NCBI GenBank assembly: GCA_051294905.1
Contig: CM119373.1
Span: 3,226,001-3,290,000 of the forward strand
Direction: 5' to 3'
Length of the DNA: 64,000 nucleotides
Source: Botryllus schlosseri
Taxonomy: Eukaryota
The position numbers and the translations under genes were made by a program. The notes beneath the pieces are model-generated. The model was not told where the DNA came from, made no database searches, and was given only the letters and a program-made list of their open reading frames with translations. Below, in pieces: positions 10,401 through 43,500 of this stretch (positions within the stretch are counted from its first letter, which is position 1; every line of letters starts with the position of its first letter).

Positions 10401-10914
10401 CTAGAAATAGTCATATCCAATCACCGAAGAATCCATTTGTGTTACAGCTGTGAAGCGTAGGCTACGGCTGCTTTATACTGGACACATTGAATTGACGATA
10501 ATAACATGAATAAAGACACCCAATATGACACACGATGTAACCAACTATACATCAAGAGGGAAACATCATGCCGATGGTTGCCATACCGCCCTGCTTATAT
10601 ATCTAAATAAGCTACGAAACGCAACCTTTTGATATTTTACTGTTTTCCATACCAGTTTTATAGTTTGTTGCATCCTTAGTTGTACAAAGTCACGGCGCTC
10701 CGCGTCACAAAAGTCCTTCTCTGATGGTATCTCTTGACACGACTCAACTCGAGTCATTTATATTTCATCACTCATTAAGTCCGAGTTCGAGTAATTCTAC
10801 AAAAGATTGCGCCCAAGTCCAAATCACAATTTTCGATACGAATCATCGACGGGTCATGTTTAACCATAATAAACAAGTAATGTCACGTAATAGGTAATCT
10901 GTCAATGCGTCGTA

Positions 10915-13900
10915 AGTAGTTATATAGATCGGTCGTGAGGTGCCTGGGTTTCTTATGGCGGGGTGGCGATTCGTATTGAAAACCGGGGGTGGCGACTCGT
11001 ACTTTCAGACCCCCCGCGGGGCCGCGATTCGTAATGGGTTCTTATGGATGCGGTCGTGATTCGTACTTTTGGGTATAGGCTGCGGCGGTGAATCGTAATG
11101 AGAACTCGTGGTCGTGATTCGCACTTTCAGACATCTCTCGCGTGGTGTTGAATATGTACGAGTCACCGACAATAACCGCGCAGACGGAAACGTGGCTTGT
11201 TGTGAGGATTAAGCAGTGCGTGCGACAGACGGCGATTCGAATATCAACAATAGTCGCGTTCGCAAACTAACACTTCAAAAAGATGTGAAATATTTGTAAA
11301 ATCCTACGATCGCTCACAAGATACCACTTCCGGCAAATCGATCTATCACTCAATACACAACCGAAGTTGAATTGTAATTGAATGCGTAAATTTATCACCT
11401 CGACATCAAAATTCGAAAACAACAACTTGATGCTTTATGTTCTCACTCTAATTTCATGATAAGTGTAATAAGTGCCGAATAACAGATACACCACCGGCGA
11501 GACTTGGATACCAACAAATTGTCACTTATTTCTATTCTAGCCGTAATCCTTTGTGAAGTTAACGCTTATTCAAAAAGGTGTGAAATATTTGCAAAACCCC
11601 GCGATCACTGACAAGATAATGTCTCGGACATAACCATCTTTCGCGACTTGGTGTCATAACCATACCGATCGCTCACGCGGTGAAATTTTAGTAATCAGTT
11701 TGTCACAGAACTTGATTTCGCTGGTAAGATTTAACAAGTAACGAATAATAGACCGCCAGGGTCGGTAACTTGAATAGCGACAAATTGTCACTTATTTCCG
11801 CTCTAACCCTAATCCTCTGTGAAGTGAACGCTTATTCAAAAGGGTGTGATATAATTTGAAAACCCGACGACCACTCACCGGATAAAGCTTCAGACATAGC
11901 AATCCCTCATACCCGCTCACAAGGTAATATTTCGGTAATTAGTTTGTCCCAGAACCATCGCAGACGGTGATTCGAAAACCAACAATTTGTCACTTGCCCG
12001 CGATCGCTATACGTTTCACGCCTCCCGAATAGTGGCTGACTTTAGTTGCGTGATAAGATCCATGAAAATATTCAATCAATGTGTTAGTTTGTCAACTTGA
12101 AATGTAACTCACTACACAAATCAAGTTGAATCGTATTTGAATGTATTGATTCGACCCAACTCAAATCCTATTAACGCGATCTGTTGAATCGAACGTAACC
12201 TGAATATTACTGACGCCAACATTCACTCTCATCGGATCATTCACACATTCCACGCCGCTGTTTTAACACTTATAGAATCAATACCAACTATCTCTGACCC
12301 GATAATATTCAATCATTTTGGTAATTTGCCAACTTTAAATCCATTCGCGGGATGTACTAAAGGTAAATCCAAATAATCCAGAATGAAATATTTGGACTTA
12401 GACATTGTGCGAATTGAAATAGGTTTGACAAACATGACTACCAACTTTCACCCAGTCACATTTCAAGATTATACTTTGAAACAATCCTTGAAACTGACAA
12501 CTCTATTCACGACTGAGTTTTCCGAGCAACTCGGTAAGGTCATAGTTACTACCGCATTACCTAATTTACCCGACCAACTCGTCATGATCATTCCTGAAAT
12601 CAACACAAACATGACTACTGACTTGAGTCAACCACAAAACAGCATCAAGTTTTAAATCCGCTTGTAGCTTACGGCTTATTTGAATGCAGGTTATGTTTTG
12701 TTGTAATTGAGTGTACGGAAATAGTATTACGTCTCGACATCTCACCATCTTACCATACTCAAAGAGTCAACCACGAAAACATTGTCAAGTAAATCCGTTA
12801 CCCAACCAACTCAAACAGTATCAGTACGAAAAACAACCAAACATACACGAATCCATACAATCACTAAAACCTAAAATCCATAACAAGCTTGGTTGTATTC
12901 ATATCCCTACACATCTTTTTTTTATTCAGCTTGAAAAGTCGTTACTATTCTGTAAGATTGAGGAATTACTACGCGGTATATTCTGCAAGACAAACTAATT
13001 ACTACTCGGTATATTTTGTAAGACAAAAGTAATTACTCTTTGGTACAGGCGACTTGAGATTAACATAATATGTTTGAGTATACGAGATTTGAAAGTCCGA
13101 CCAACGTAGTTGAGAATTCATTTCTTACAATCGAACGATGGTGTTATATTCAAAGTTATCATGCTGTGAACATAAGGATTGACACATTGATTTGACATAT
13201 GAGATTTGTAATAGTTGATCATTACTTTATTATTAAATTATTTGCGTTAATTAGACCCGGCGTTGTGGTAAATGTTATGACAGCAACAGACTTTTCAGTA
13301 CCAATGTTATTAACATATTAAGCTGTAAAACTATGTATGTCTGAAATGTTCTTGATTGGAAAATTACTCCACCTTGGTAAAAATCACTCGGCGTATCGCG
13401 GATATCAGAAAATATTTCCAGTAACCAAGACTAAAGATGAAACGACAATATCGGTATTATTACATTCAACAATCAGTACAATTATTAAAATCTATCGTTT
13501 GCGATAAACAGCACTAAAGATGTAATAATTCCAGTATTCATACATTGAACATCCGATACAAAATGCTTTATTATCCCGATTCCCAACGGGTAATTGAAAC
13601 GACTAAGTGTAGAATCAGTATATCACAATATCGTTACTATTGAATCCAACGATTTATTGTCGGAATTTGTGACAGAGAATTGAAACATATGCACTTTACA
13701 GAGTATGAAAATATCACTTTGAGTATCGAGTACCGTTCGAAGCTAGCGATCAATTCTTAATCATTTCAGTAACTCCCCATTGTGCGTGCTAAATGTAAAA
13801 TATCGCGAGGTTATACACTCTAAGACTTTGATTATTGTAAAAGTAAATTGTGATATGTTTGTTAGATGCATCCAATTCAACTAGAAGTGTCTAGTGCCCA

Positions 13901-16900
13901 ACACTCGTAATATCAAAAAAGTACTTGCTACACTGTTATTTGCTAAACGTGTTTTGCATTGTTGTTCATTTCTAGTATTGATTGAAATCATTCTTGAACC
14001 CTCAAATAATAATTCCCGACATGAAACCAAGCCGCTGAAATCACGAAGATACAATGTGTACGATGTTTGTCAAATGTGTCCTACCTGGCCAACAGAAAAC
14101 AATTTTCACTAGCTTGGTAATGAAACCGAAGTCTCCATTCGATATTTTGTTTGTGTCAAATACTTTACAATGAACACATTTGCGTGGTTGAGCTTTACAT
14201 CATCAGACTGCCATCTGTACATCAAGAATACATCCGACTTGTAACTGGGTCGTTTACCTAACCGAGTTGTATGCACAGTTTGATATTTTTGTCATTTAGT
14301 GATTGCTGAACATACCACTTCGAAATACCGCGTTGATCTCAATTTCCATCATCGTGATAAGTGAAGTACATTTGTTTTGAATTCATAGCAATAGGCTTTT
14401 CTATGGTATGATAAATTATTGACAAGCTCTGCTTAGAAGATTGGTTGCATATCACGAAAATAATATACCACACATATTATTACTGTTACTCCATTCATCG
14501 GTATTTTTTCCGTTGTCGATTTTCAAACGAGTAAAATTTATTACTTGAGTTGCTCTGCTTACTATATTTAAATGTAAACTCACCCGTCTTTCAACAACAA
14601 ACAATGTTAAAAAAGTATGCAATCAAACACAACAAGTTTTACGATACTAATTATTATCCCACATAACCCATTTCTTACCGAAGACATATGAAATATATTC
14701 ATGTTACACGAAAATATTCGCTCATGCTACAAACCTGTACAATGATTGGTGGTGCTTTCAAACTGTTTCGACACCTCAAGAACTTTATTGTCTGAATGGT
14801 TGTTCATGTATCGTAATAATCAAGTAGTTCAACACAGAACTAGTATTAACAGAAACACCAGAGTTGTTTACACAAAAGTTTGTATGCGTACAGTATGCGA
14901 ATACCATGTGTAAGTCGAGCGCAATTGCGGTATCCATCCAAGTTTAGTTAACACAAATTCATTACAACGGAGCCGCGTAAACCTTCGTGAAAGAAAAGCA
15001 TACCCACTTCCCGAGGGTTCTGTCAATGTCATAACAATAAACCAGATACTCCAACAACAGAGTACATATGTTTTCTAGTCACGATCCTTACATCTTTCAC
15101 ATAGATCAATCTACTTTGCTACCGAAAAGTACTGAGTCATCATATGGTTGTCCTCACAACTAAAACATACTATCGTACAAAATGGTCGTTATAGTTTGCA
15201 CACCAACGGTACATCGTACAAGTAACAAGGTTCGAGAATCCAGTTATTCAAAAAAAAAAAAACGTGAAAGTATTTCTACACCAAGTCGTTATGTTGACGA
15301 AAGCGTATATTGTAATATCATGATCGATTTGCATTCGTTGGCCACAAACTGTCACTACTCTAAATAATTCTTTTTCACTCAAACACAATCGCATACTTGT
15401 CACCATTCGTTTTCATCAAGCACGAGTTCAAGAAACTTACTTACTACGACATGAATTTTTATTTTTATGTTGTGTAAATAGGTAATAATTAATTCAAGTA
15501 ACACTATATCAACATCATCGACTTGTGCTAATAGATTTACATGCGGTCTTGTGGTTTTCGTCGGGTCATACAGCACGAACTAACTGTAGACTCCTCTCTG
15601 TTGTACAACTACTCGGTAATCGAAATGCATTAACATGTAAACAACGATCTTGTTTCGTCACACCAAAAATATGTTCACTGTCGCGATACTCCGCACAAGA
15701 CGCGCATAGCCTTTTCACACTCGTAATAGTATACCAACGTCAAACGATAACGTTTAACAAGACCAACGACACTGAGCCCACGACGTTTACCTATGTGAAA
15801 TTACCACTTTCACTTGCCAGTCCATCGTTTACCTGACTAAACATATTATTTTCCTTTGGAGATCTGACGTTTACCCAGAGTAAGAAACCATTTTCACTTG
15901 TAAATATATTTTTTCCTTGGCTAACAAACCTTTTTTCACTTGGAAATATATTTTTTCCTTGGCTAACAAACCTTTTTTCACTTGGAAATATATTTTTTCT
16001 CTGGTTAACAAACCTTTTTCACTTGGAAATATATTTTTTCTCTGGTTAACAAACCTTTTTCACTTGGAAATATATTTTTTCTCTGGTTAACAATCCTTTT
16101 TCACTTGGAAATATATTTTTCCCTGGGTAACAAACCTTTTTTCCCTGAGCAACAAACCATTCTCACTTGGTGGTCCGTCGTTTAGCCGAGTAAAAATATC
16201 ATTTTCCTTTGGAGATCCGGCGTTTACCCAGTGTAACAATACATTTTCACTTGGAAAAATACTTTTACCTAGAGTAACTAATCATTTTCTCCTGGGTAAC
16301 AATCCCTTTTCGTCTGGAAACTATCATTTAACTGAGTACCAATACCGTTTTCACTTGGAAATACATTTTTTCCCTGGGTAACAATACCATTTTCGTTTTG
16401 AAAACTGACAACCACACCGGTCAATTTGATATTTTTGTATATTGTTACAACAAACAGTGACGGAAATATACACAGACAACCGGTTTCAGAGTATACCCCA
16501 TCGGTCGTATCACATCAATATCATCGGTTAACCACATACAATATGCTCTTGTACACTGAAATGCATGTTTTGGAAACTTGGACAATAGGCCTCGATAGTT
16601 CTGTGATGTCCGGGTTCGTGCTTTGGATTTTCCAGAGTCAAAATGTCTGAATAAAACACCTCCTCGACGACGGTTGGTATGTGGATAACGGTTGGATTTA
16701 TGTCACCCATCGCGATAACAATTCCTGGTCGAGTTTTCCACCGGCATGTTTACTATATTGTGTCTTTATTGATCAATGTATGTCTCGACATTCAGTTTGA
16801 AATCGGAAATGCTAAAGTATGTAACCGGATCCGGATATCAACTCTGAATCGATAAACCAATGAACAATATTCAAAGTAAACATGTCACACCCTGTGTTTC

Positions 16901-17101
16901 CACGAAAAAATACCATCCAGACATACGTCGCGCTTGTTTGCCCACACCAGTATATGCGCAAATGGAGGTGTGTGACATTGCATGCAATGTGTTGGTATAC
17001 AAACATCGATCCACAGACATTATCATAGTCGGTAATTTTGATGCAGATCGAATGTCACCCGATAACAATACCAATAAGCCACATTGCAATGACTCTGAGT
17101 C
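10915..17101 (+). repeat. Left arm of palindrome 1 (6187 bp)
   Basis: Reverse complement of 18018-24207; mirrored ORF pairs in the track (e.g. 12383+/22467-, 15525+/19283-). Confidence 0.97.
15885..16390. repeat. ~38-39-bp minisatellite (TTTTCACTTGGAAATATATTTTTTCTCTGGTTAACAAACC-like); mirrored at ~18730-19235
   Basis: About 7 near-perfect tandem units with degenerate flanking units. Confidence 0.9.
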
Positions 17102-17635
17102 TGCGCTATTACATCGATATTTCGACACCGTTCACTGATTTATTCGATGGTGTTATCGTGTTGTAACATTACAAGATAGTCATGACCCTATCTCCGGACA
17201 GATCACCCAGATCAATTGGATACATCGGTCAATATCCGTCGTGTTGTCGACACCGAAGTTTTCTGCTGCAGCGTTTGACCAATGTGAACTATCGAAGTAC
17301 GGTGCTCGAAATGATTGCAATCAGTCTTTCAGTCACGATCAATGGATGTCGCTACTCCCACATAACGACTCCGGATAAATATCGTGCAAATGTCGGACTG
17401 ATATTGTGATCCAATAAGGTATGTTTCTGTGGAATGAAGACTGCAATCGTACACCACAATAGAACACTACCTCGTGATTTCACACGCAATCATAAAACAC
17501 ACTTTCGTAAGGGTCTAGCTCGTCCGGTGACATTTCGAAACGGTCGTCACCACAAGAGATCGGGGTTGGTCTCGTCATATCGGAGCATTTTGAAACGACA
17601 TCGTCACAAGTCTATTGACGTCGATTCAGTTGGTC

Positions 17636-17911
17636 ATGTCAATCCGTTTCACAATCCACCGTTTTTCCACTCCCCGCACCATAGTGTTACGACACAGACA
17701 AGAAGCGTCGGTGGAAATGATAAAACACGGAAGGTACACTTTGGTGTTATTTGATATGGATTTTACACCAGACGAACCTCACATTCGAGTGATGCATTTG
17801 AATGGCGATTGTATTATTGATGTCCAGGGAAAAGAAATGTATCGATTTATCGGATTTGTACATATCCAACAAAAACCTGGGTATATGATTGTACACGGTT
17901 CGCATATTTGA
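17636..17911 (+). CDS. Putative 91-aa protein of unknown function in the loop of palindrome 1
   Basis: MSIRFTIHRF...GYMIVHGSHI; indel-free homolog in copy 2 with many synonymous changes. Confidence 0.45.
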   Translation: MSIRFTIHRFSTPRTIVLRHRQEASVEMIKHGRYTLVLFDMDFTPDEPHIRVMHLNGDCIIDVQGKEMYRFIGFVHIQQKPGYMIVHGSHI

Positions 17912-18017
17912 CTGTGATCACAATATTGGTATATACTGTACAGTTCACTTTCACCGCCGTGCGAATAACCCATGTTACGGTTCCGTGTTTGTGTGTCTGT
18001 ATGTCATGCTTCAGATT

Positions 18018-21000
18018 GACTCAGAGTCATTGCAATGTGGCTTATTGGTATTGTTATCGGGTGACATTCGATCTGCATCAAAATTACCGACTATGATAAT
18101 GTCTGTGGATCGATGTTTGTATACGAACACATTGCATGCAATGTCACACACCTCCATTTGCGCATATACTGGTGTGGGCAAACAAGCGCGACGTATGTCT
18201 GGATGGTATTTTTTCGTGGAAACACAGGGTGTGACATGTTTACTTTGAATATTGTTCATTGGTTTATCGATTCAGAGTTGATATCCGGATCCGGTTACAT
18301 ACTTTAGCATTTCCGATTTCAAACTGAATGTCGAGACATACATTGATCAATAAAGACACAATATAGTAAACATGCCGGTGGAAAACTCGACCAGGAATTG
18401 TTATCGCGATGGGTGACATAAATCCAACCGTTATCCACATACCAACCGTCGTCGAGGAGGTGTTTTATTCAGACATTTTGACTCTGGAAAATCCAAAGCA
18501 CGAACCCGGACATCACAGAACTATCGAGGCCTATTGTCCAAGTTTCCAAAACATGCATTTCAGTGTACAAGAGCATATTGTATGTGGTTAACCGATGATA
18601 TTGATGTGATACGACCGATGGGGTATACTCTGAAACCGGTTGTCTGTGTATATTTCCGTCACTGTTTGTTGTAACAATATACAAAAATATCAAATTGACC
18701 GGTGTGGTTGTCAGTTTTCAAAACGAAAATGGTATTGTTACCCAGGGAAAAAATGTATTTCCAAGTGAAAACGGTATTGGTACTCAGTTAAATGATAGTT
18801 TCCAGACGAAAAGGGATTGTTACCCAGGAGAAAATGATTAGTTACTCTAGGTAAAAGTATTTTTCCAAGTGAAAATGTATTGTTACACTGGGTAAACGCC
18901 GGATCTCCAAAGGAAAATGATATTTTTACTCGGCTAAACGACGGACCACCAAGTGAGAATGGTTTGTTGCTCAGGGAAAAAAGGTTTGTTACCCAGGGAA
19001 AAATATATTTCCAAGTGAAAAAGGATTGTTAACCAGAGAAAAAATATATTTCCAAGTGAAAAAGGTTTGTTAACCAGAGAAAAAATATATTTCCAAGTGA
19101 AAAAGGTTTGTTAACCAGAGAAAAAATATATTTCCAAGTGAAAAAAGGTTTGTTAGCCAAGGAAAAAATATATTTCCAAGTGAAAAAAGGTTTGTTAGCC
19201 AAGGAAAAAATATATTTACAAGTGAAAATGGTTTCTTACTCTGGGTAAACGTCAGATCTCCAAAGGAAAATAATATGTTTAGTCAGGTAAACGATGGACT
19301 GGCAAGTGAAAGTGGTAATTTCACATAGGTAAACGTCGTGGGCTCAGTGTCGTTGGTCTTGTTAAACGTTATCGTTTGACGTTGGTATACTATTACGAGT
19401 GTGAAAAGGCTATGCGCGTCTTGTGCGGAGTATCGCGACAGTGAACATATTTTTGGTGTGACGAAACAAGATCGTTGTTTACATGTTAATGCATTTCGAT
19501 TACCGAGTAGTTGTACAACAGAGAGGAGTCTACAGTTAGTTCGTGCTGTATGACCCGACGAAAACCACAAGACCGCATGTAAATCTATTAGCACAAGTCG
19601 ATGATGTTGATATTATAGTGTTACTTGAATTAATTATTACCTATTTACACAACATAAAAATAAAAATTCATGTCGTAGTAAGTAAGTTTCTTGAACTCGT
19701 GCTTGATGAAAACGAATGGTGACAAGTATGCGATTGTGTTTGAGTGAAAAAGAATTATTTAGAGTAGTGACAGTTTGTGGCCAACGAATGCAAATCGATC
19801 ATGATATTACAATATACGCTTTCGTCAACATAACGACTTGGTGTAGAAATACTTTCACGTTTTTTTTTTTTTGAATAACTGGATTCTCGAACCTTGTTAC
19901 TTGTACGATGTACCGTTGGTGTGCAAACTATAACGACCATTTTGTACGATAGTATGTTTTAGTTGTGAGGACAACCATATGATGACTCAGTACTTTTCGG
20001 TAGCAAAGTAGATTGATCTATGTGAAAGATGTAAGGATCGTGACTAGAAAACATATGTACTCTGTTGTTGGAGTATCTGGTTTATTGTTATGACATTGAC
20101 AGAACCCTCGGGAAGTGGGTATGCTTTTCTTTCACGAAGGTTTACGCGGCTCCGTTGTAATGAATTTGTGTTAACTAAACTTGGATGGATACCGCAATTG
20201 CGCTCGACTTACACATGGTATTCGCATACTGTACGCATACAAACTTTTGTGTAAACAACTCTGGTGTTTCTGTTAATACTAGTTCTGTGTTGAACTACTT
20301 GATTATTACGATACATGAACAACCATTCAGACAATAAAGTTATTGAGGTGTCGAAACAGTTTGAAAGCACCACCAATCATTGTACAGGTTTGTAGCATGA
20401 GCGAATATTTTCGTGTAACATGAATATATTTCATATGTCTTCGGTAAGAAATGGGTTATGTGGGATAATAATTAGTATCGTAAAACTTGTTGTGTTTGAT
20501 TGCATACTTTTTTAACATTGTTTGTTGTTGAAAGACGGGTGAGTTTACATTTAAATATAGTAAGCAGAGCAACTCAAGTAATAAATTTTACTCGTTTGAA
20601 AATCGACAACGGAAAAAATACCGATGAATGGAGTAACAGTAATAATATGTGTGGTATATTATTTTCGTGATATGCAACCAATCTTCTAAGCAGAGCTTGT
20701 CAATAATTTATCATACCATAGAAAAGCCTATTGCTATGAATTCAAAACAAATGTACTTCACTTATCACGATGATGGAAATTGAGATCAACGCGGTATTTC
20801 GAAGTGGTATGTTCAGCAATCACTAAATGACAAAAATATCAAACTGTGCATACAACTCGGTTAGGTAAACGACCCAGTTACAAGTCGGATGTATTCTTGA
20901 TGTACAGATGGCAGTCTGATGATGTAAAGCTCAACCACGCAAATGTGTTCATTGTAAAGTATTTGACACAAACAAAATATCGAATGGAGACTTCGGTTTC

Positions 21001-24000
21001 ATTACCAAGCTAGTGAAAATTGTTTTCTGTTGGCCAGGTAGGACACATTTGACAAACATCGTACACATTGTATCTTCGTGATTTCAGCGGCTTGGTTTCA
21101 TGTCGGGAATTATTATTTGAGGGTTCAAGAATGATTTCAATCAATACTAGAAATGAACAACAATGCAAAACACGTTTAGCAAATAACAGTGTAGCAAGTA
21201 CTTTTTTGATATTACGAGTGTTGGGCACTAGACACTTCTAGTTGAATTGGATGCATCTAACAAACATATCACAATTTACTTTTACAATAATCAAAGTCTT
21301 AGAGTGTATAACCTCGCGATATTTTACATTTAGCACGCACAATGGGGAGTTACTGAAATGATTAAGAATTGATCGCTAGCTTCGAACGGTACTCGATACT
21401 CAAAGTGATATTTTCATACTCTGTAAAGTGCATATGTTTCAATTCTCTGTCACAAATTCCGACAATAAATCGTTGGATTCAATAGTAACGATATTGTGAT
21501 ATACTGATTCTACACTTAGTCGTTTCAATTACCCGTTGGGAATCGGGATAATAAAGCATTTTGTATCGGATGTTCAATGTATGAATACTGGAATTATTAC
21601 ATCTTTAGTGCTGTTTATCGCAAACGATAGATTTTAATAATTGTACTGATTGTTGAATGTAATAATACCAATATTGTCGTTTCATCTTTAGTCTTGGTTA
21701 CTGGAAATATTTTCTGATATCCGCGATACGCCGAGTGATTTTTACCAAGGTGGAGTAATTTTCCAATCAAGAACATTTCAGACATACATAGTTTTACAGC
21801 TTAATATGTTAATAACATTGGTACTGAAAAGTCTGTTGCTGTCATAACATTTACCACAACGCCGGGTCTAATTAACGCAAATAATTTAATAATAAAGTAA
21901 TGATCAACTATTACAAATCTCATATGTCAAATCAATGTGTCAATCCTTATGTTCACAGCATGATAACTTTGAATATAACACCATCGTTCGATTGTAAGAA
22001 ATGAATTCTCAACTACGTTGGTCGGACTTTCAAATCTCGTATACTCAAACATATTATGTTAATCTCAAGTCGCCTGTACCAAAGAGTAATTACTTTTGTC
22101 TTACAAAATATACCGAGTAGTAATTAGTTTGTCTTGCAGAATATACCGCGTAGTAATTCCTCAATCTTACAGAATAGTAACGACTTTTCAAGCTGAATAA
22201 AAAAAAGATGTGTAGGGATATGAATACAACCAAGCTTGTTATGGATTTTAGGTTTTAGTGATTGTATGGATTCGTGTATGTTTGGTTGTTTTTCGTACTG
22301 ATACTGTTTGAGTTGGTTGGGTAACGGATTTACTTGACAATGTTTTCGTGGTTGACTCTTTGAGTATGGTAAGATGGTGAGATGTCGAGACGTAATACTA
22401 TTTCCGTACACTCAATTACAACAAAACATAACCTGCATTCAAATAAGCCGTAAGCTACAAGCGGATTTAAAACTTGATGCTGTTTTGTGGTTGACTCAAG
22501 TCAGTAGTCATGTTTGTGTTGATTTCAGGAATGATCATGACGAGTTGGTCGGGTAAATTAGGTAATGCGGTAGTAACTATGACCTTACCGAGTTGCTCGG
22601 AAAACTCAGTCGTGAATAGAGTTGTCAGTTTCAAGGATTGTTTCAAAGTATAATCTTGAAATGTGACTGGGTGAAAGTTGGTAGTCATGTTTGTCAAACC
22701 TATTTCAATTCGCACAATGTCTAAGTCCAAATATTTCATTCTGGATTATTTGGATTTACCTTTAGTACATCCCGCGAATGGATTTAAAGTTGGCAAATTA
22801 CCAAAATGATTGAATATTATCGGGTCAGAGATAGTTGGTATTGATTCTATAAGTGTTAAAACAGCGGCGTGGAATGTGTGAATGATCCGATGAGAGTGAA
22901 TGTTGGCGTCAGTAATATTCAGGTTACGTTCGATTCAACAGATCGCGTTAATAGGATTTGAGTTGGGTCGAATCAATACATTCAAATACGATTCAACTTG
23001 ATTTGTGTAGTGAGTTACATTTCAAGTTGACAAACTAACACATTGATTGAATATTTTCATGGATCTTATCACGCAACTAAAGTCAGCCACTATTCGGGAG
23101 GCGTGAAACGTATAGCGATCGCGGGCAAGTGACAAATTGTTGGTTTTCGAATCACCGTCTGCGATGGTTCTGGGACAAACTAATTACCGAAATATTACCT
23201 TGTGAGCGGGTATGAGGGATTGCTATGTCTGAAGCTTTATCCGGTGAGTGGTCGTCGGGTTTTCAAATTATATCACACCCTTTTGAATAAGCGTTCACTT
23301 CACAGAGGATTAGGGTTAGAGCGGAAATAAGTGACAATTTGTCGCTATTCAAGTTACCGACCCTGGCGGTCTATTATTCGTTACTTGTTAAATCTTACCA
23401 GCGAAATCAAGTTCTGTGACAAACTGATTACTAAAATTTCACCGCGTGAGCGATCGGTATGGTTATGACACCAAGTCGCGAAAGATGGTTATGTCCGAGA
23501 CATTATCTTGTCAGTGATCGCGGGGTTTTGCAAATATTTCACACCTTTTTGAATAAGCGTTAACTTCACAAAGGATTACGGCTAGAATAGAAATAAGTGA
23601 CAATTTGTTGGTATCCAAGTCTCGCCGGTGGTGTATCTGTTATTCGGCACTTATTACACTTATCATGAAATTAGAGTGAGAACATAAAGCATCAAGTTGT
23701 TGTTTTCGAATTTTGATGTCGAGGTGATAAATTTACGCATTCAATTACAATTCAACTTCGGTTGTGTATTGAGTGATAGATCGATTTGCCGGAAGTGGTA
23801 TCTTGTGAGCGATCGTAGGATTTTACAAATATTTCACATCTTTTTGAAGTGTTAGTTTGCGAACGCGACTATTGTTGATATTCGAATCGCCGTCTGTCGC
23901 ACGCACTGCTTAATCCTCACAACAAGCCACGTTTCCGTCTGCGCGGTTATTGTCGGTGACTCGTACATATTCAACACCACGCGAGAGATGTCTGAAAGTG

Positions 24001-24207
24001 CGAATCACGACCACGAGTTCTCATTACGATTCACCGCCGCAGCCTATACCCAAAAGTACGAATCACGACCGCATCCATAAGAACCCATTACGAATCGCGG
24101 CCCCGCGGGGGGTCTGAAAGTACGAGTCGCCACCCCCGGTTTTCAATACGAATCGCCACCCCGCCATAAGAAACCCAGGCACCTCACGACCGATCTATAT
24201 AACTACT
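18018..24207 (-). repeat. Right arm of palindrome 1 (6190 bp)
   Basis: Inverted copy of 10915-17101. Differences seen: a 3-bp indel near 19611 and substitutions near 18126, 20342 and 21669. Confidence 0.97.
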
Positions 24208-24622
24208 GTCGTAACTTTTGAAAGTGATGTAATACTGAAGTTTGATGAGTAGTTTCTGGCTTCTGGAGTGGTTTTAGAGCGAATTCTAAGTTCTCAAATT
24301 AAAAAAAATTGGTATTCAAATATTAAATTAATTAAAATCCAAAATGCCGTCGCGGGGCGCACAAAATGGTCTCGCGGGCCGCGTGTTTGAGACCTCTGGC
24401 TTAATATGACTTCATAGCAGTATGGAAGATGTGGAAAGCTCACACAAATACCTTTTACGCGACCACAAAGAATGCAATGCTATTTCTACATCACATTAAA
24501 GATTATTTGATATTTTTCAACCACGAATATTTCATTGCACTTTGCGAAAATGATGTAGGTTAATCACTAATTTATAGATATGTCATTAGCACCAAATTAC
24601 GTAGTTGTGTAGGCTACTACAT

Positions 24623-30925: not shown

Positions 30926-33900
30926 AGTAGTAGTATATATCGGTCACGAATCGCCATAGGGTTCTTATGGGCCCGCTGGTGAGGTGTCGCGACACTCGTG
31001 TTGGTGATGGCACCCTTTGTTAATGTGTATATCGTAAATTATTATATATGATGTCGTAGTTTAGTCGTGTCAAATGACCGATCGTGTTCCAACTCTTTCC
31101 TCGCTATTGATTGCTACCTGAATAATACTTTCAGATCGGATTATTCACACCGCTGTTTCGCACCTACAGAATAGTCTGCTGTTCACAGTCGCAACTTCAT
31201 CGCGATAGCACAATTTTCACACCTCGGTGTCGGTAACTTGAATAGCGACAAATTGTCACTTATTTCCACTCTAACCCTAATCCTTTGTGAAGTGAACGCT
31301 TATTCAAAAGGGTGTGATATAATTTTAAAATCCGACGACCACTCACCGGATAATGCTTCAGACATAGAAATCCCTCATACCCGCTCACAAGGTAATATTT
31401 CGGTAATTAGTTTGTCACAGAACCGTCGCAGGCGGTGATTCGAAAACCAACAATTTGTCACTTGCCCGCGATCGCTATATGTTTCACGCCTCCAGAATAG
31501 TGGCTGACTTTAGTTGCGTGATAAGATCCATGAAAATATTCAATCAATGTGTTAGTTTATCAACTTGAAATGTAACTCACTACACAAATCAAGTTGAATC
31601 GTATTTGAATGTATTGATTCGACCCAACTCAAATCCTTTGACAAATCCTATTAACGCGATCTGTTGAATCGAACGTAACCTGAATATTACTGACGCCAAC
31701 ATTCACCCGCATCGGATCATTCACACATTCCACGCCGCTGTTTTAACACTTATAGAATCAATACCAACTATCTCTAACCCGATAATATTCAATCATTTTG
31801 GTAATTTGCCAACTTTAAATCCATTCGCGGGATGTACTAAAGGTAAATCCAAATAATCCAGAATGAAATATTTGGACTTTGACATTGCGTGAATTGAAAT
31901 AGGTTTGACAAACATGACTACCAACTTTCACCCAGTCACATTTCAAGATTATACTTTGAAACAATCCTTGAAACTGACAACTCTATTCACGACTCCGTTT
32001 CCGTTTGTAAAATAGAGTTTCAGAAATACTATCACTATGACAACTCAACATTTTAACATCTCGCCATGCATAAACGAGTAAAATACAAAAACCTTGGTAA
32101 GTCAATCCGTTTGTAGTAACTCACCAAACCAAAACAAAAAGAGTCCGTATGAAAAGTAGACAAGACTACGCGAGTAATCACTACAACCCGCAAACATATC
32201 AACTCAGTTGTATCCATATCCCATATTTTTTATTCAACTGTAAGATGAAGTAATTACTACTTGGCGCGCGGTTTGTGATTAACACATTACATTTGAGTAT
32301 ACGAGATTTGAATGTCTGACCAACGTAGTTGAGAATTCTTACAATCGAACGCAGGTGTTATATTGAAAATTTTCACGAATTGACACATTGATTTTGACAT
32401 ATGAGATTTTGTAATAGTCGATCATGACTTGATTATTAAATTATGACATTATTAGACCAGGGTTGTGTTGAAGGTTATTACGATACCAACAAACTTTTCA
32501 GAAACATTGTTATTAACATATCGATTTGTAAAACTAGATTAACATGTCTGAAATGTTTTGATTGGGAAGATTAAGCCGTGTTCGTAAAAACCACGCAGCG
32601 TATTGTGGAAATCAGGAAATAATTTACAAATGTAATTGTCTCCAGTAACCAAGACTAAAGATGAAACAACAATTTTCTTTGTTGAACAATAACCGATACA
32701 ATACTTTATCGTCGTAATCTGCGGTGGGAATTGAAACACTTTCGCACATTTCCCGGTGTCAAGATATCACACTAGGTGAATTGACATATCGCCGCTTGAT
32801 TAATGCTTAATCCGTTCGCACCATTTCACACACTTTGATCATTACAAAAAACAAATTGGAATATGTTTGCTAGATGCATTCAATTCAGTTAGAAATGTCT
32901 GGTACACAACAATCGTAATATCAATGAAGTACTTGCTACACTGTAATTCACTTAACGTGTTTTGCATTGTTGTTCATTTGTAGTATTGATTGTTTTTGAA
33001 CCCCCAAATAATAATTCCCCGACATGAAACCAAACCGCTGAAAGTCATTACCCCCACAAAAACAATCTGTATGATATTCACCAAACGCATCCCGACTCAG
33101 CATGCAGAAATTATTTGTAGAGTGCATACCGACAAAGAAATCACGAACACAACCAACACCGAAAATGATAAACACGTTTCGCGTTACTATTGATACAAGT
33201 TCATTTCTATCGTCGAAATAAATGCCACCACAAAACTCAGAGCATGCAAAGGTCTTGATTGATATGAATTTCGATTTGTGTCTTATGATACCAGCAAGCA
33301 TTTTAGACATATTACGAATTGTTAAACCGAAGTCGTACGTCCGATTAATAGTTGATTGGAAACTTGTTCACGTACCTCAACCATTACAGAAAAGTATAAC
33401 ACCATTGTCCGACAATCTTTTACAAAAAGGATCGAAATCAAGTCACTCAAAGTCGTTGCCGTCACATAAACAATTTGTACGACGTTTGCTAAATGCGTCC
33501 TATAGTTAGGTGTACTAGAAATATTTGTAAAACACACTCCGAAAAAGAAATCGGCGAAAAGATATCCTACACCTAAATCTGGTAAAACCAGTTTGCACTT
33601 TTTGTTCATTAGTATGGTATCCATTTCCTTTCGTCAAAGTAGATGTAATCATAGTCACTAAAGAACTTACTCGGACGTATGCTTCAATTCTAGACATAGT
33701 TCTGATTTGTCCGACACAAGACCCAAGAACAACCCTAGTTTCAACCGAGCACACATATCCAAAATATCACACACTCCGCTATTCCTAAAGCGCAAACACC
33801 CGATACAAAATATTACTTTTTGTGATGTTGCGGCATCATCTTCACAATATCACACACAATACAAATGATGGTTATGTGTAACATGCTATCGACTTGAATC

Positions 33901-36563
33901 ACACCAACATGGAAGAGGATTTACTCACTCTTTACATAACGATATTGACCAACATCACGTCGTCGGAGTGTATCGTTTTTTCTAGATACAAACTACGCTA
34001 GTGTAGCGGAAAATAATTTAGTGTAACAAAAACAATTTTCACTCTCTTGACTTATGAAAACAACAGACGAGTCTTCATTCAATATTTTGTTTGTGTCAAC
34101 AAGTTACTTTCTATGATACGACTGATACCCGCGCGACTTTTTCAGATCACAATATGAAAGATATTTACATCACACAAAATACTCCACTTGATATTCCCAT
34201 ACTATACTAAACTGTGGAATGGTTGGTCAGACTCTACAAAATGTTTTGATATCGTTTTTCACACGAATGGTCACGCATCTAAATATTCAAATAATCCAAC
34301 ACACAACTATAGTACTTACAGAAATATCATAGTTCTTGTAACAAAGTTGTATGAATATACTATTCAATTGTATATTGAAGTTTTCTACCTCCAAGAAGAT
34401 CTTCAAAGTTGTATGTGTAGTTGTGTACAATGTATATCGTGAGTCCTACACATTCATGATATCCACCCGAGTTTGACTTTTAGTAAACACTATACCGACA
34501 TCGCGACATCTTTCAAAATTAAGATCACGGTGACTGCTTGAGAGACCTACCAATGATATTGCAGTAATACAGTTACTTCCACAAAAGAGTATGTATTCGA
34601 CTTACTTTCCACAAATCTTACACACAAATCAATCTACTTTGCTAACGAAAAGTGCTGAGTCATCACATGGTTGTCCTCACAACAATACAACTAAAACATA
34701 CTATCATACAAAACGGTCGTTATAGTTTGCACACCAACGGTACATCGTACAAGTAGCAAGTCTCGAGAATCCAGTTATTCAAAAACGTGAAAGTGTTTCT
34801 ACACCAAGTCGGTATGTTGACGAAAGCATATGTTGTAATATCATGATCGATTTGCATTCGTTGGTCACAAAATGTCACTCCTCTAAATAATTATTTTTCA
34901 CTCAAACACAAAAGCATACTTGTCACCATTCGTTTTCATCAAGCACGAGTTCACGAAACTTACTTACTACGACATGAATTGTTATTTTTATGTTGTGTAA
35001 ATAGGTAATAATTAATTTTAGTAACACTATATCAACATCATCGAGTTGTGCGAATAGATTTACACGCGGTCTTGTGGTTTTAATCGAAGTACACAGCACG
35101 GTCTAATGTAGAGCCATCTCATTGTACAGCAACTCGGTAATCGAAATGCATGCATTAAAATTTAAACAGCGATCTTGTTTCATCACGCGAAAAATATGTT
35201 CACTATCGCGATACTCTGCACAGGACGTGTAAATCCTTTTCACGCTCGTAATAGTATCCCAACGGCTACCGGCGACAACGTTTAACAACACCAACGACAC
35301 TAAACATACGATACCTACCCAAGTAAAATTTCCATTTTCACCTGGAGGTCAGCCGTTACCTGAGTAAAAATACCATTATTCTTTGGAGATTTATCGTTTA
35401 ATCAGAGTAACAATACATTTTCACTTGGGGGTCTATCGTTTCCAAGAGTAACAAGCCCCCTTTCCTTTGGAAATCTATTTTTCCCTGGGTAACAAACCTT
35501 TTTCACTTGGAAATATATTTTTTCTCTGGGTAACATACCTTTTTCACTTGGAAATATATTTTTTCCCTGAGCAACAAACCTTTTTCACTTGGAAATATAT
35601 TTTTTCCCTCAGCAACAAACCATTTTCACTTGGAAATATATTTTTTTCCCTGAGCAACAAACCATTTTCACTTGGCGGGTCGTCGTTTACCTGAGTAAAA
35701 ATATTATTTTCCTTTCGAGATCTGGCGTTTACCCAGTGTAACAATACATTTTCTCTTGGTCATCTAGCTTTTCCTAGAGTAACAAAACCATTTTCATTTT
35801 GAAATCTGACAAACACACCTGACAATTTGGTATTTTTTGTATTGACGATAGTTTGAAATAGAATGCAAGGAACAGTGACGGAAATATACACGGACTACCG
35901 GTTTCAGAGTATACCCCCATCAGTCGTATCACATCAATATCATCGGTTAACCACATACAATATGCTCTTGTACACCGAAATGCATGTTTTGGAAAATTGG
36001 ACAATAGGTTTCGACATGTCCGCGATGTCCGGGTTCGTGCTTTGGATTTTCCAGAGTCAAAATGTCTGAATAAAACACCTCCTCGACGATGGATGGTATG
36101 TGGATAACGGTGTTCGGAAAACGGTTGGATTTATGTCACCCATCGCGATAACAATTCCAGGTCGAGTTTTCCCCCGCATGTTTACTATGTTGTGTCTTTA
36201 TTGGTCAATGTGTGTCTCGACATTCAGTTTGAAATCGGAAACCCTGATAAAGTATGTAACCGGATCCGGATATCAACTCTGAATCGATAAACCAATGAAC
36301 AATATTCAAAGTAAACATGTTACACCCTGTGTTTCCACGAAAAAATACCATCCAGACATACGTCGCGCTTGTTTGCCCACACCAGTATATGCGTAATGGG
36401 GTGTGTGACATTGCATGCAATGTGTTGGTATACAAACATCGGGGAGTAAGCCTTCGATCCACAGACATTATCATAGCCGGTAATTTTGATGCAGATCGAA
36501 TGTCATCAAGCACACCCGATAACAATGTCATACCAATAAGCCACATTGCAATGACTCTGAGTC
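30926..36563 (+). repeat. Left arm of palindrome 2 (5638 bp; lacks a 689-bp subterminal block)
   Basis: Reverse complement of 37517-43845 except 43069-43757; mirrored ORF pairs (e.g. 32948-/40772+). Confidence 0.96.
35410..35760. repeat. Same ~38-39-bp minisatellite in copy 2; mirrored at ~38320-38670
   Basis: TTTTCACTTGGAAATATATTTTTT... tandem units; fewer units than in copy 1. Confidence 0.85.
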
Positions 36564-37132
36564 CGCGCTATTAAATTGATATTTCAACACCGTTCACTGA
36601 TTTATTCGATGGTGTTATCGTGTTGTAACATTACAAGATAGTCATGACCCTATCTCCAGACGGACCACTCAGACCAATTGGATATATCGGTCAATATCCA
36701 TCGTGTTGTCGACACCGAAGTTTTCTGCTGAGACTGCAGCGTTTGACCAATGTGAACTATCGAAGTACAGTGCTCGAAATGATAGCGATCAGTCTTTCAG
36801 TCACGATGCATGGATGTCGCTACTCCCACATAACGACTCCAGATAAATATCGTGAACTGTGATTCTGCAAATCTCGGACTGATACTGTGATCCAATAAGG
36901 TGTGTTTCAGTGGAATGAAGACTGCAATCGTACACCACAATAGAACACTACCTCGTGATTTCACACGCAATCATAAAACACATCATCGTAAGGGTTCCGT
37001 TCGTCTGGTAACATTACAAAAAACGGTCGTCACCACGCGAGATCGGGATTGGTCTCGTCATATCGAGGAACAATTTGAAACGGTATCGTCACAAGGCTAT
37101 TGACGTTGATTCAGTTGGTCATATCGAAGAAC

Positions 37133-37414
37133 ATGTCAATCCGTTTTACAAAGTACCGTTTTTCAAGTTCCTGCACCATAGTGTTACGACACAGACAAGA
37201 TGCGACGGTGGAAATAATAAAACACGGAAGGCACACTTTGGTGTTATTTGACATGGATTTTACACCAGACGAACCTCACATTCGAGCGATGAATTGGAAC
37301 GCCACTTGTATTATTGACATCGAAGGGAAAGAAATGTATCGATTTATTGGTTTCGTACATATCCAACAAAAATCTGGGTATATGATTGTGCATGGTTCGC
37401 ATATTCGACTGTGA
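37133..37414 (+). CDS. Putative 93-aa protein of unknown function in the loop of palindrome 2
   Basis: MSIRFTKYRF...GYMIVHGSHIRL; colinear with 17636-17911. Confidence 0.45.
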   Translation: MSIRFTKYRFSSSCTIVLRHRQDATVEIIKHGRHTLVLFDMDFTPDEPHIRAMNWNATCIIDIEGKEMYRFIGFVHIQQKSGYMIVHGSHIRL

Positions 37415-37516
37415 ACGCTCTATTGGTATATGTTGTACAGTTCACTTTCACCGTCGTGCGAATAACCCATGTTACGGTTCCATGTTTGTGTGTGTCTGTA
37501 TGTCATACTTCAGATT

Positions 37517-40500
37517 GACTCAGAGTCATTGCAATGTGGCTTATTGGTATGACATTGTTATCGGGTGTGCTTGATGACATTCGATCTGCATCAAAATTAC
37601 CGACTATGATAATGTCTGTGGATCGAAGGCTTACTCCCCGATGTTTGTATACCAACACATTGCATGCAATGTCACACACCTCCATTTACGCGTATACTGG
37701 TGTGGGCAAACAAGCGGGACGTATGTCTGGATGGTATTTTTTCGTGGAAACACAGGGTGTAACATGTTTACTTTGAATATTGTTCATTGGTTTATCGATT
37801 CAGAGTTGATATCCGGATCCGGTTACATACTTTATCAGGGTTTCCGATTTCAAACTGAATGTCGAGACACACATTGACCAATAAAGACACAACATAGTAA
37901 ACATGCGGGGGAAAACTCGACCTGGAATTGTTATCGCGATGGGTGACATAAATCCAACCGTTTTCCGAACACCGTTATCCACATACCAACCATCGTTGAG
38001 GAGGTGTTTTATTCAGACATTTTGACTCTGGAAAATCCAAAGCACGAACCCGGACATCGCGGACATGTCGAAACCTATTGTCCAATTTTCCAAAACATGC
38101 ATTTCGGTGTACAAGAGCATATTGTATGTGGTTAACCGATGATATTGATGTGATACGACTGATGGGGGTATACTCTGAAACCGGTAGTCCGTGTATATTT
38201 CCGTCACTGTTCCTTGTATTCTATTTCAAACTATCGTCAATACAACAAATACCAAATTGTCAGGTGTGTTTGTCAGATTTCAAAATGAAAATGGTTTTGT
38301 TACTCTAAGAAAAGCTAGATGACCAAGAGAAAATGTATTGTTACACTGGGTAAACGCCAGATCTCGAAAGGAAAATAATATTTTTACTCAGGTAAACGAC
38401 GACCCGCCAAGTGAAAATGGTTTGTTGCTCAGGGAAAAAAATATATTTCCAAGTGAAAATGGTTTGTTGCTGAGGGAAAAAATATATTTCCAAGTGAAAA
38501 AGGTTTGTTGCTCAGGGAAAAAATATATTTCCAAGTGAAAAAGGTATGTTACCCAGAGAAAAAATATATTTCCAAGTGAAAAAGGTTTGTTACCCAGGGA
38601 AAAATAGATTTCCAAAGGAAAGGGGGCTTGTTACTCTTGGAAACGATAGACCCCCAAGTGAAAATGTATTGTTACTCTGATTAAACGATAAATCTCCAAA
38701 GAATAATGGTATTTTTACTCAGGTAACGGCTGACCTCCAGGTGAAAATGGAAATTTTACTTGGGTAGGTATCGTATGTTTAGTGTCGTTGGTGTTGTTAA
38801 ACGTTGTCGCCGGTAGCCGTTGGGATACTATTACGAGCGTGAAAAGGATTTACACGTCCTGTGCAGAGTATCGCGATAGTGAACATATTTTTCGCGTGAT
38901 GAAACAAGATCGCTGTTTAAATTTTAATGCATGCATTTCGATTACCGAGTTGCTGTACAATGAGATGGCTCTACATTAGACCGTGCTGTGTACTTCGATT
39001 AAAACCACAAGACCGCGTGTAAATCTATTCGCACAACTCGATGATGTTGATATAGTGTTACTAAAATTAATTATTACCTATTTACACAACATAAAAATAA
39101 CAATTCATGTCGTAGTAAGTAAGTTTCGTGAACTCGTGCTTGATGAAAACGAATGGTGACAAGTATGCTTTTGTGTTTGAGTGAAAAATAATTATTTAGA
39201 GGAGTGACATTTTGTGACCAACGAATGCAAATCGATCATGATATTACAACATATGCTTTCGTCAACATACCGACTTGGTGTAGAAACACTTTCACGTTTT
39301 TGAATAACTGGATTCTCGAGACTTGCTACTTGTACGATGTACCGTTGGTGTGCAAACTATAACGACCGTTTTGTATGATAGTATGTTTTAGTTGTATTGT
39401 TGTGAGGACAACCATGTGATGACTCAGCACTTTTCGTTAGCAAAGTAGATTGATTTGTGTGTAAGATTTGTGGAAAGTAAGTCGAATACATACTCTTTTG
39501 TGGAAGTAACTGTATTACTGCAATATCATTGGTAGGTCTCTCAAGCAGTCACCGTGATCTTAATTTTGAAAGATGTCGCGATGTCGGTATAGTGTTTACT
39601 AAAAGTCAAACTCGGGTGGATATCATGAATGTGTAGGACTCACGATATACATTGTACACAACTACACATACAACTTTGAAGATCTTCTTGGAGGTAGAAA
39701 ACTTCAATATACAATTGAATAGTATATTCATACAACTTTGTTACAAGAACTATGATATTTCTGTAAGTACTATAGTTGTGTGTTGGATTATTTGAATATT
39801 TAGATGCGTGACCATTCGTGTGAAAAACGATATCAAAACATTTTGTAGAGTCTGACCAACCATTCCACAGTTTAGTATAGTATTGGAATATCAAGTGGAG
39901 TATTTTGTGTGATGTAAATATCTTTCATATTGTGATCTGAAAAAGTCGCGCGGGTATCAGTCGTATCATAGAAAGTAACTTGTTGACACAAACAAAATAT
40001 TGAATGAAGACTCGTCTGTTGTTTTCATAAGTCAAGAGAGTGAAAATTGTTTTTGTTACACTAAATTATTTTCCGCTACACTAGCGTAGTTTGTATCTAG
40101 AAAAAACGATACACTCCGACGACGTGATGTTGGTCAATATCGTTATGTAAAGAGTGAGTAAATCCTCTTCCATGTTGGTGTGATTCAAGTCGATAGCATG
40201 TTACACATAACCATCATTTGTATTGTGTGTGATATTGTGAAGATGATGCCGCAACATCACAAAAAGTAATATTTTGTATCGGGTGTTTGCGCTTTAGGAA
40301 TAGCGGAGTGTGTGATATTTTGGATATGTGTGCTCGGTTGAAACTAGGGTTGTTCTTGGGTCTTGTGTCGGACAAATCAGAACTATGTCTAGAATTGAAG
40401 CATACGTCCGAGTAAGTTCTTTAGTGACTATGATTACATCTACTTTGACGAAAGGAAATGGATACCATACTAATGAACAAAAAGTGCAAACTGGTTTTAC

Positions 40501-43500
40501 CAGATTTAGGTGTAGGATATCTTTTCGCCGATTTCTTTTTCGGAGTGTGTTTTACAAATATTTCTAGTACACCTAACTATAGGACGCATTTAGCAAACGT
40601 CGTACAAATTGTTTATGTGACGGCAACGACTTTGAGTGACTTGGTTTCGATCCTTTTTGTAAAAGATTGTCGGACAATGGTTTTATACTTTTCCGTAATG
40701 GTTGAGGTACGTGAACAAGTTTCCAATCAACTATTAATCGGACGTATGACTTCGGTTTAACAATTCGTAATATGTCTAAAATGCTTGCTGGTATCATAAG
40801 ACACAAATCGAAATTCATATCAATCAAGACCTTTGCATGCTCTGAGTTTTGTGGTCGCATTTATTTCGACGATAGAAATGAACTTGTATCAATAGTAACG
40901 CGAAACGTGTTTATCATTTTCGGTGCTGGTTGTGTTCGTGATTTCTTTGTCGGTATGCACTCTACAAATAATTTCTGCATGCTGAGTCGGGATGCGTTTG
41001 GTGAATATCATACAAATTGTTTTTGTGGGGGTAATGACTTTCAGCGGTTTGGTTTCATGTCGGGGAATTATTATTTGGGGGTTCAAAAACAATCAATACT
41101 ACAAATGAACAACAATGCAAAACACGTTAAGTGAATTACAGTGTAGCAAGTACTTCATTGATATTACGATTGTTGTGTACCAGACATTTCTAACTGAATT
41201 GAATGCATCTAGCAAACATATTCCAATTTGTTTTTTGTAATGATCAAAGTGTGTGAAATGGTGCGAACGGATTAAGCATTAATCAAGCGGCGATATGTCA
41301 ATTCACCCAGTGTGATATCTTGACACCGGGAAATGTGCGAAAGTGTTTCAATTCCCACCGCAGATTACGACGATAAAGTATTGTATCGGTTATTGTTCAA
41401 CAAAGAAAATTGTTGTTTCATCTTTAGTCTTGGTTACTGGAGACAATTACATTTGTAAATTATTTCCTGATTTCCACAATACGCTGCGTGGTTTTTACGA
41501 ACACGGCTTAATCTTCCCAATCAAAACATTTCAGACATGTTAATCTAGTTTTACAAATCGATATGTTAATAACAATGTTTCTGAAAAGTTTGTTGGTATC
41601 GTAATAACCTTCAACACAACCCTGGTCTAATAATGTCATAATTTAATAATCAAGTCATGATCGACTATTACAAAATCTCATATGTCAAAATCAATGCGTC
41701 AATTCGTGAAAATTTTCAATATAACACCTGCGTTCGATTGTAAGAATTCTCAACTACGTTGGTCAGACATTCAAATCTCGTATACTCAAATGTAATGTGT
41801 TAATCTCAAACCGCGCGCCAAGTAGTAATTACTTCATCTTACAGTTGAATAAAAAATATGGGATATGGATACAACTGAGTTGGTATGTTTGCGGGTTGTA
41901 GTGATTACTCGCGTAGTCTTGTCTACTTTTCATACGGACACTTTTTGTTTTGGTTTGGTGAGTTACTACAAACGGATTGACTTACCAAGGTTTTTGTATT
42001 TTACTCGTTTGTGCATGGCGAGATGTTAAAATGTTGAGTTGTCATAGTGATAGTATTTCTGAAACTCTATTTTACAAACGGAAACGGAGTCGTGAATAGA
42101 GTTGTCAGTTTCAAGGATTGTTTCAAAGTATAATCTTGAAATGTGACTGGGTGAAAGTTGGTAGTCATGTTTGTCAAACCTATTTCAATTCACGCAATGT
42201 CAAAGTCCAAATATTTCATTCTGGATTATTTGGATTTACCTTTAGTACATCCCGCGAATGGATTTAAAGTTGGCAAATTACCAAAATGATTGAATATTAT
42301 CGGGTTAGAGATAGTTGGTATTGATTCTATAAGTGTTAAAACAGCGGCGTGGAATGTGTGAATGATCCGATGCGGGTGAATGTTGGCGTCAGTAATATTC
42401 AGGTTACGTTCGATTCAACAGATCGCGTTAATAGGATTTGTCAAAGGATTTGAGTTGGGTCGAATCAATACATTCAAATACGATTCAACTTGATTTGTGT
42501 AGTGAGTTACATTTCAAGTTGATAAACTAACACATTGATTGAATATTTTCATGGATCTTATCACGCAACTAAAGTCAGCCACTATTCTGGAGGCGTGAAA
42601 CATATAGCGATCGCGGGCAAGTGACAAATTGTTGGTTTTCGAATCACCGCCTGCGACGGTTCTGTGACAAACTAATTACCGAAATATTACCTTGTGAGCG
42701 GGTATGAGGGATTTCTATGTCTGAAGCATTATCCGGTGAGTGGTCGTCGGATTTTAAAATTATATCACACCCTTTTGAATAAGCGTTCACTTCACAAAGG
42801 ATTAGGGTTAGAGCGGAAATAAGTGACAATTTGTCGCTATTCAAGTTACCGACACCGAGGTGTGAAAATTGTGCTATCGCGATGAAGTTGCGACTGTGAA
42901 CAGCAGACTATTCTGTAGGTGCGAAACAGCGGTGTGAATAATCCGATCTGAAAGTATTATTCAGGTAGCAATCAATAGCGAGGAAAGAGTTGGAACACGA
43001 TCGGTCATTTGACACGACTAAACTACGACATCATATATAATAATTTACGATATACACATTAACAAAGGTTCATTCACATGACTATTTACTTGATACATAT
43101 TCAACACCGTGCGAGAGATGCCTATACCCGAAAGGGCGATTCACGACCGCATCCATAAGAATAACGATATATCGAAGTCGCGCTCGCCGTAAACGTTAGG
43201 ATTACCCGGAATCGGTCATATATAATAATTTGGGGTATACACAATAACTAAGGATCAATCACGTGATCAATATACTTCGTAATCAACATCACCTCATGAC
43301 CGCAGCCTATACCAACTACATTAGTTCACTACGACACAAGAATCCGTGGGCACATCATCACCCCAGCATATATCTGAAAGGGTACCATCATCACCACATA
43401 GGCACATCATCACCACATGGGGGTCTGAAAGGGTACCATCACCACCACGAGTTTTCACGGCACATCATCGCCGCAGCCTATACCAGAAAGGGTACCATCA

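Follow-up and report, generated by a model that had tools for sequence, protein, structure and literature searches.

How do the two arms of a long inverted repeat stay alike within one copy while two copies of that repeat have grown apart? The question is raised by a stretch of 64,000 nucleotides from Botryllus schlosseri (GenBank assembly GCA_051294905.1, contig CM119373.1, positions 3,226,001 to 3,290,000), referred to below as the window, which holds two nearly wholly palindromic elements of one family. An earlier note, made from the DNA letters, had proposed that one arm is repeatedly re-templated from the other and that arm divergence could serve as an insertion clock, as it does for pairs of long terminal repeats (LTRs). 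We find the feature to be real: it is a variant of the Polinton kind in which the arms have been re-templated, and its clock is not dependable.

Two Palindromic Elements with Polinton-Type Ends

Self-comparison of the window delimited two complete elements, copy 1 at 10915-24207 (13,293 bp) and copy 2 at 30926-43845 (12,920 bp). The interval first given for the feature, 12510..42090, was too narrow, as both elements extend further. In each, inverted arms of about 6 kb fill 93% of the length and enclose a spacer of about 0.9 kb. The left arm of copy 1 (10915..17101, plus strand, 6187 bp) begins with (AGT)2, its right arm (18018..24207, minus strand, 6190 bp) terminates in (ACT)2, and the non-palindromic spacer between them (17102..18017, unstranded) measures 916 bp. 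Copy 2 has a left arm of 5638 bp and a right arm of 6329 bp, with a spacer of 953 bp (36564..37516, unstranded) between them. Its right arm (37517..43845, minus strand) is full length and terminates in (ACT)3. The left arm, on the plus strand, comprises an interior (31014..36563, with its partner stretch at 37517-43068 in the right arm) and a 93-bp terminal stub (30926..31018) that was severed by a deletion in this arm.

An (AGT)2 or (AGT)3 motif starts all four element ends, and both copies are flanked by a perfect 6-bp target-site duplication (TSD), each with its own sequence (plus-strand positions 10909..10914 and 24208..24213 for copy 1, 30920..30925 and 43846..43851 for copy 2). Two insertions with different TSDs describe a dispersed multi-copy family that moves as a unit. 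Vertebrate Mavericks have been mapped by (AGT)2//(ACT)2 or (AG)3//(CT)3 ends together with a 6-bp TSD, and the lengths are 12.7-24.6 kb for intact ones and 46-1447 bp for their repeats (PMC8097293). The end motifs and TSDs found here match, bearing out the Polinton link that had been suggested. Terminal inverted repeats (TIRs) are also present, about four times as long as the longest in that survey. A scan of all 12 frames, read through stops, against Pfam, the sole library used, returned 0 families. It found none of the core genes of Polintons (protein-primed polymerase B, integrase, packaging ATPase, protease and capsid proteins) and no transposase domain, nor was a gene for a single-strand-binding protein seen in the arms. 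The longest stop-to-stop frame is 139 aa. By these sequence features the elements are non-autonomous Polinton/Maverick-type palindromes and do not class as autonomous members.

Arms Agree within a Copy and Differ between Copies

Over 6190 columns, 3 substitutions and one 3-bp indel separate the arms of copy 1 (99.90% identity), whose symmetry reaches the very last base. The interior arms of copy 2 have 23 substitutions between them and a single site with a small indel (99.55% identity). Both results agree with the earlier counts of about 3 substitutions and one 3-bp indel in copy 1 and of roughly 15-25 differing sites in copy 2. Arm divergence thus differs seven-fold between the copies (4/6190 vs 25/5550, P=2e-5).

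The four arms were compared over five alignable blocks with 2789 gap-free columns, the non-alignable blocks and the minisatellite being excluded. In this set 233 columns group the arms by copy, 0 by side and 0 crosswise, and 11 concern a single arm. Indel events in the alignable blocks are mirrored in 29 cases and confined to one arm in 2, and the arm tree groups by copy with a bootstrap of 100. The arms cluster by element, as had been predicted, and clustering by side clearly fails (233 vs 0). A raw count of 923 by-copy columns was dropped, since non-homologous blocks had been forced into that alignment.

Between the copies, identity varies as in a mosaic. It is about 97% for 11761-12520 and about 80% for 13017-14040, is limited to islands in 14041-15023, and amounts to 83-94% further inward and 95-98% adjoining the spacer. 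Kilobase heterologies and sharp mosaic breakpoints are mirrored between the arms. The blocks described as present in copy 2 only (~33044-34024) or in copy 1 only (~14160-14800) are real and stand in both arms of their copy. They are not clean insertions, however, but belong to one largely non-homologous replaced region (plus strand), which spans 14041..15023 in copy 1 (mirror 20099-21081), where homology to copy 2 is limited to short islands, and 33044..34550 in copy 2 (mirror 39532-41038). A 15-bp indel near 36440 and differing arrays of a 41-bp minisatellite are likewise real and mirrored; the copy 1 array (15800..16403, plus strand) is letter-identical between both arms.

Mirroring holds for these named changes but not for all large ones. 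In copy 2 a segment of 689 bp (43064..43752, minus strand) is retained in the right arm and missing from the left; this deletion was absent from the earlier account and has 5-bp microhomology at its junction. Since the symmetry of copy 1 extends to its final base and the copy 2 deletion has stayed unrepaired, repair at this locus is not continuous.

A recombination breakpoint lies at 12520 and 32000, where a between-copy identity of 97.8% gives way abruptly to none; it recurs as a mirror image in the opposite arm. Within the copy 2 form of the replaced region, a 56-bp piece (34350-34405, with its mirror in the right arm) matches, at 85%, the first part of a dispersed repeat of the host at 9182-9325; it occurs in both copy 2 arms and in none of copy 1. 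The same region holds two adjacent short frames (33222-33509 and 33531-33788) with a common peptide motif, which suggests an old internal duplication. A search for a homologue of the frame at 33222-33509 found none.

The Loop Boundary and the Spacer Gene

The spacers of the two copies are homologous and lie in the same orientation (82 substitutions over 916 columns, about 9% diverged), and the arm/spacer boundary falls at the identical base in both. Because this boundary and the same-orientation homologous spacer are common to both copies, the palindromic layout predates their split, and every by-copy difference must therefore have passed from arm to arm afterwards. Together with the clustering by copy, this comparison indicates that the arms have been re-templated since the copies split, and the central proposal of the earlier note is upheld.

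The boundary sits on an 11-bp palindrome (5+1+5) at 17091-17101 and 36553-36563 and at the mirror junctions; palindromes of this form are present at 0.14% of window positions. Beside the boundary, the inner arm differs between copies at 11/398 positions (2.8%) and the spacer at 21/399 (5.3%; P=0.10), while other arm blocks differ by 12-18%.

Each spacer contains an intact open reading frame on the plus strand, of 91 aa in copy 1 (17636..17911), where it is an orphan, and of 93 aa in copy 2 (37133..37414). The two products share 81% amino-acid identity, and the ratio of non-synonymous to synonymous rates (dN/dS) is 0.37 (P=0.016); a value of 0.46 (P=0.04) is reached by one of the five other spacer frames, which is antisense. 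Judged by this substitution pattern, the frame is a conserved orphan gene under apparent purifying selection. Outside relatives of the protein are P0001 and P0002 only. No relative was found among viral or metagenome contigs, and the Atlas matches are all below 0.9. Two WD40 proteins were rejected as relatives, their scores being summed repeat noise. The predicted structure would be all-beta (pLDDT, the predicted local distance difference test score, 63); its fold had no match at E<=0.001 in the PDB or viral libraries, and there was no family match.

Arm Differences Are Clumped

A clock of the LTR type requires identity at insertion and even accumulation of differences later. Even (Poisson) accumulation fails in copy 2. 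Its interior differences are clumped by the Greenwood statistic (P=0.0035; 0.0007 with the stub) and in bins of 500 bp (P=0.0006) and 250 bp (P=0.010), with P=0.17 in bins of 1000 bp and P=0.25 in a Kolmogorov-Smirnov (KS) test. The longest difference-free tract of the interior measures 1576 bp (P=0.011), and a tract of 2335 bp holds a single difference. The stub differs from the right end at 4 positions, or 4.3% (interval 1.2-11%), against 0.43% (0.28-0.64%) in the interior. Local rates inside this one insertion range between 0.04% and 4.3%. The clumps are poorly accounted for by CpG content, which is 3.6-5.1% across the interior tracts; 6/23 differences are CpG transitions.

Nine of the 23 interior substitutions could be polarised, 4 as derived on the left and 5 on the right; the other 14 have no outgroup. 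Since derived letters occur in either arm, one-sided import from another copy is not the source of the clumps. At the stub all four differences look derived on the left (two-sided chance 0.125), two sites being polarised by an exact copy 1 motif and two by a looser comparison with copy 1 or subterminal repeats.

Because the copy 2 differences are clumped and local rates are uneven, the simple LTR-like clock is not supported as dependable, and dating errors are possible in either direction. Of the proposal that copy 1 is the younger there remains a likely ranking by last symmetrisation, in which copy 1 was probably equalised later than copy 2; its insertion date does not follow.

The Family in Other Samples

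We compared the contigs of four runs over 23500-31200; run X1 is possibly the source sample and was not counted as independent. Among the pieces listed none bridged an element junction, and the substitutions considered were 40 of 633. In X1 the summed depth exceeds 100,000 at the arm ends and is 14-75 for unique bins, which marks an abundant family and is not a copy number. Two copy 1 letters that are rare in the family stand in both copy 1 arms. At 23615 the other letter accounts for 136,525 of 136,874 depth units in X1, and at 23786 for 48,295 of 52,738; in run X6 it makes up 100% of the depth at both positions. Since such rare letters are present in both arms, symmetrisation has been recent and frequent.

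A 340-bp contig of the low-depth run X7 matches the copy 1 arm end with 2 differences over 325 bp, which fits copy 1 being close to the common family form. Horizontal transfer to 'organism B' was considered and rejected: the element and an unrelated host repeat both stand in X7 at about 1/1000 or less of their X1 depth, and unique bins are near zero, fitting trace DNA of organism A rather than transfer. No RNA runs occur among the listed holders of the spacer and inner arm. Unique DNA at 25800-30700 differs by about 5-12% between the window and other samples' contigs, and the species is therefore highly polymorphic.

How the Arms Are Probably Equalised

We think it moderately probable that arm correction takes place chiefly at mobilisation, by hairpin or panhandle repair during helper-driven replication, and is patchy afterwards. 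A helper Polinton would supply the protein-primed polymerase and the integrase, and the displaced single strand, being 93% self-complementary, would zip into a racket-shaped hairpin of about 6 kb. Folding would not by itself give symmetry, since internal mismatches persist when a folded strand is copied faithfully; an additional step would be needed, such as 3'-end resection with fill-in on the opposite arm, mismatch correction, or a template switch at the loop. Such correction would be incomplete or recur in tracts, and the arms would drift apart after mobilisation, so that arm divergence would gauge the time since the last local correction and not since insertion. One proposal for the Polinton cycle includes an extrachromosomal intermediate that is single-stranded and racket-like (PMC4196379), and for adenovirus and PRD1 the recovery of matching ends is modelled as passing through a panhandle (PMC11886824). 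Correction at mobilisation likely accounts for the mirrored kilobase mosaics, the terminal symmetry of copy 1 and the unrepaired deletion of copy 2. Where incomplete, it would also fit the clumps and the stub, and some differences may then be older than the insertion.

Several observations weigh against this explanation. The panhandle intermediate is one that we infer, none having been observed here, and according to a paper on the viral model, direct evidence for panhandles is still lacking there as well (PMC11886824). The copies analysed in detail number two, both from the 64-kb window. The excess of differences in the stub has a P of about 0.001 if the stub is taken as a predefined zone and of 0.21 as any 93-bp window, and the stub is GC- and CpG-rich. 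The clumps, the derived letters on both sides, the 2335-bp tract and the divergent stub fit conversion in place equally well. According to that alternative, the main rival though in our view rather unlikely, the arms are kept alike mainly by chromosomal gene conversion between the arms, and mobilisation copies the existing state. The clumps and the 2335-bp and 1576-bp tracts resemble multi-kilobase conversion tracts, whose mean minimum length in human palindrome P6 is 2068 bp (PMC3723533). Cut off by the deletion, the stub shows about ten times the divergence of the interior, and the inner arm has diverged less than the adjoining spacer (11/398 vs 21/399). However, this last contrast has P=0.10 and the other arm blocks exceed the spacer in divergence; the 689-bp deletion survives in one arm while other kilobase heterologies are mirrored; the left-derived appearance of 4/4 stub differences (chance 0.125) is not what drift at both ends would favour; and correction in copy 1 extends as far as the terminal base.

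Mirrored mosaics and arms that cluster by copy would also be expected if each copy descended separately from a single fold-back event, with a different parent end in each case and no repeated repair. The same inner boundary at both junctions and the homologous, same-orientation spacer, 9% diverged, largely refute this highly improbable history, and independent origins would need the identical switch point twice, which would itself be programmed re-templating. As to an artefact of assembly (collapse, polishing or fold-back chimeric reads), the DNA runs compared are contigs and not raw reads, and among the pieces listed none spans the stretch. Set against this are the perfect 6-bp duplications, the unique spacers, the real arm differences (4 and 24 events, plus 4 at the stub) and the one-arm deletion. 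In addition, a single assembly yields a seven-fold difference in arm divergence between the two neighbours, and the spacer with inner arm occurs in at least 20 runs from 9 studies, 5 of these runs containing at least half of the words. Assembly collapse is unlikely, and we give an artefactual origin of the arm identity very little credence. Long inverted arms, internal tandem repeats and a short centre also look like those of other fold-back classes, namely Drosophila FB/Galileo or Mutator-like elements with long TIRs. Mutator-like and FB elements have longer target duplications, of about 9-11 bp, and their own transposase family. The duplications here are 6 bp, the ends are AGT microsatellites as in Mavericks, and the Pfam scan found no transposase domain; membership in such a class would surprise us.

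More tentatively, the elements could be Polinton satellites in which an arm is rebuilt at each replication round by programmed fold-back at a fixed loop boundary marked by the 11-bp palindrome. The insertions would then be racket fossils, a chromosomal and heritable counterpart of snap-back defective viral genomes with one selected gene in the loop. We regard this as possible but doubtful. Copy-back or snap-back defective viral genomes are helper-dependent, end-duplicated, self-complementary derivatives of a virus-like replicon. Unlike these, the elements here are DNA, integrated, heritable and old, and carry a conserved gene in the loop.

Neighbouring Host DNA

The minus strand at 2739-7361 carries a retrotransposon of the long interspersed nuclear element (LINE) type, with endonuclease, reverse transcriptase and weak RNase H regions, interrupted by stops. 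This LINE and further repeats in the vicinity indicate eukaryotic DNA. A very high-copy host repeat lies between both elements at 28126-28896. Two diverged copies of another repeat, in inverted orientation, are found at 45650-45887 and 47913-48200; we take its head to be tRNA-like.

Relation to Known Systems and Significance

With the vertebrate Polintons/Mavericks the elements share (AGT)2//(ACT)2 ends, a perfect 6-bp TSD and terminal inverted repeats, and at 12.9-13.3 kb they fall inside the 12.7-24.6 kb range; they differ in having arms of 5.6-6.3 kb against 46-1447 bp, a palindrome that takes up 93% of the element and no core domains (PMC8097293). Butterfly polintons also have unusually long TIRs, and their derivatives without polB stay mobile. 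However, those TIRs are about 2 kb, a third as long, carry hexon and adenain, and do not make the element nearly wholly palindromic; the accessible part of that report contains no analysis of arm re-templating (10.1101/2025.02.07.637071). The polinton repeats of C. elegans measure 744 bp (10.1101/2024.01.15.575659). Adenovirus and PRD1 are protein-primed strand-displacement replicons whose inverted ends are thought to restore each other (PMC11886824); here, in contrast, the inverted repeats extend over kilobases, the record lies in the chromosome and no intermediate was seen. Y-chromosome palindromes likewise have arms more than 99.5% alike, a unique spacer, changes in both arms and possible multi-kilobase tracts, but they are fixed host loci of about 100 kb, whereas the elements here are mobile, are flanked by target duplications and exist in many dispersed copies (PMC3723533). 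In the open-access literature, mainly titles and the starts of abstracts, we found nothing on nearly wholly palindromic Polinton derivatives or on the dating of Polintons by arm divergence; subscription journals, repeat databases and supplements may hold such entries.

Racket or panhandle replication of Polintons is still a proposal, and an inverted repeat filling 93% of an element offers thousands of marker sites per copy, which allow one to ask when and where both ends are equalised. The local rate of arm divergence, spanning two orders of magnitude within one insertion, is a warning against dating such elements by their arms. For the host, many-copy palindromes of 6 kb should be fragile, recombinogenic sites in the genome.

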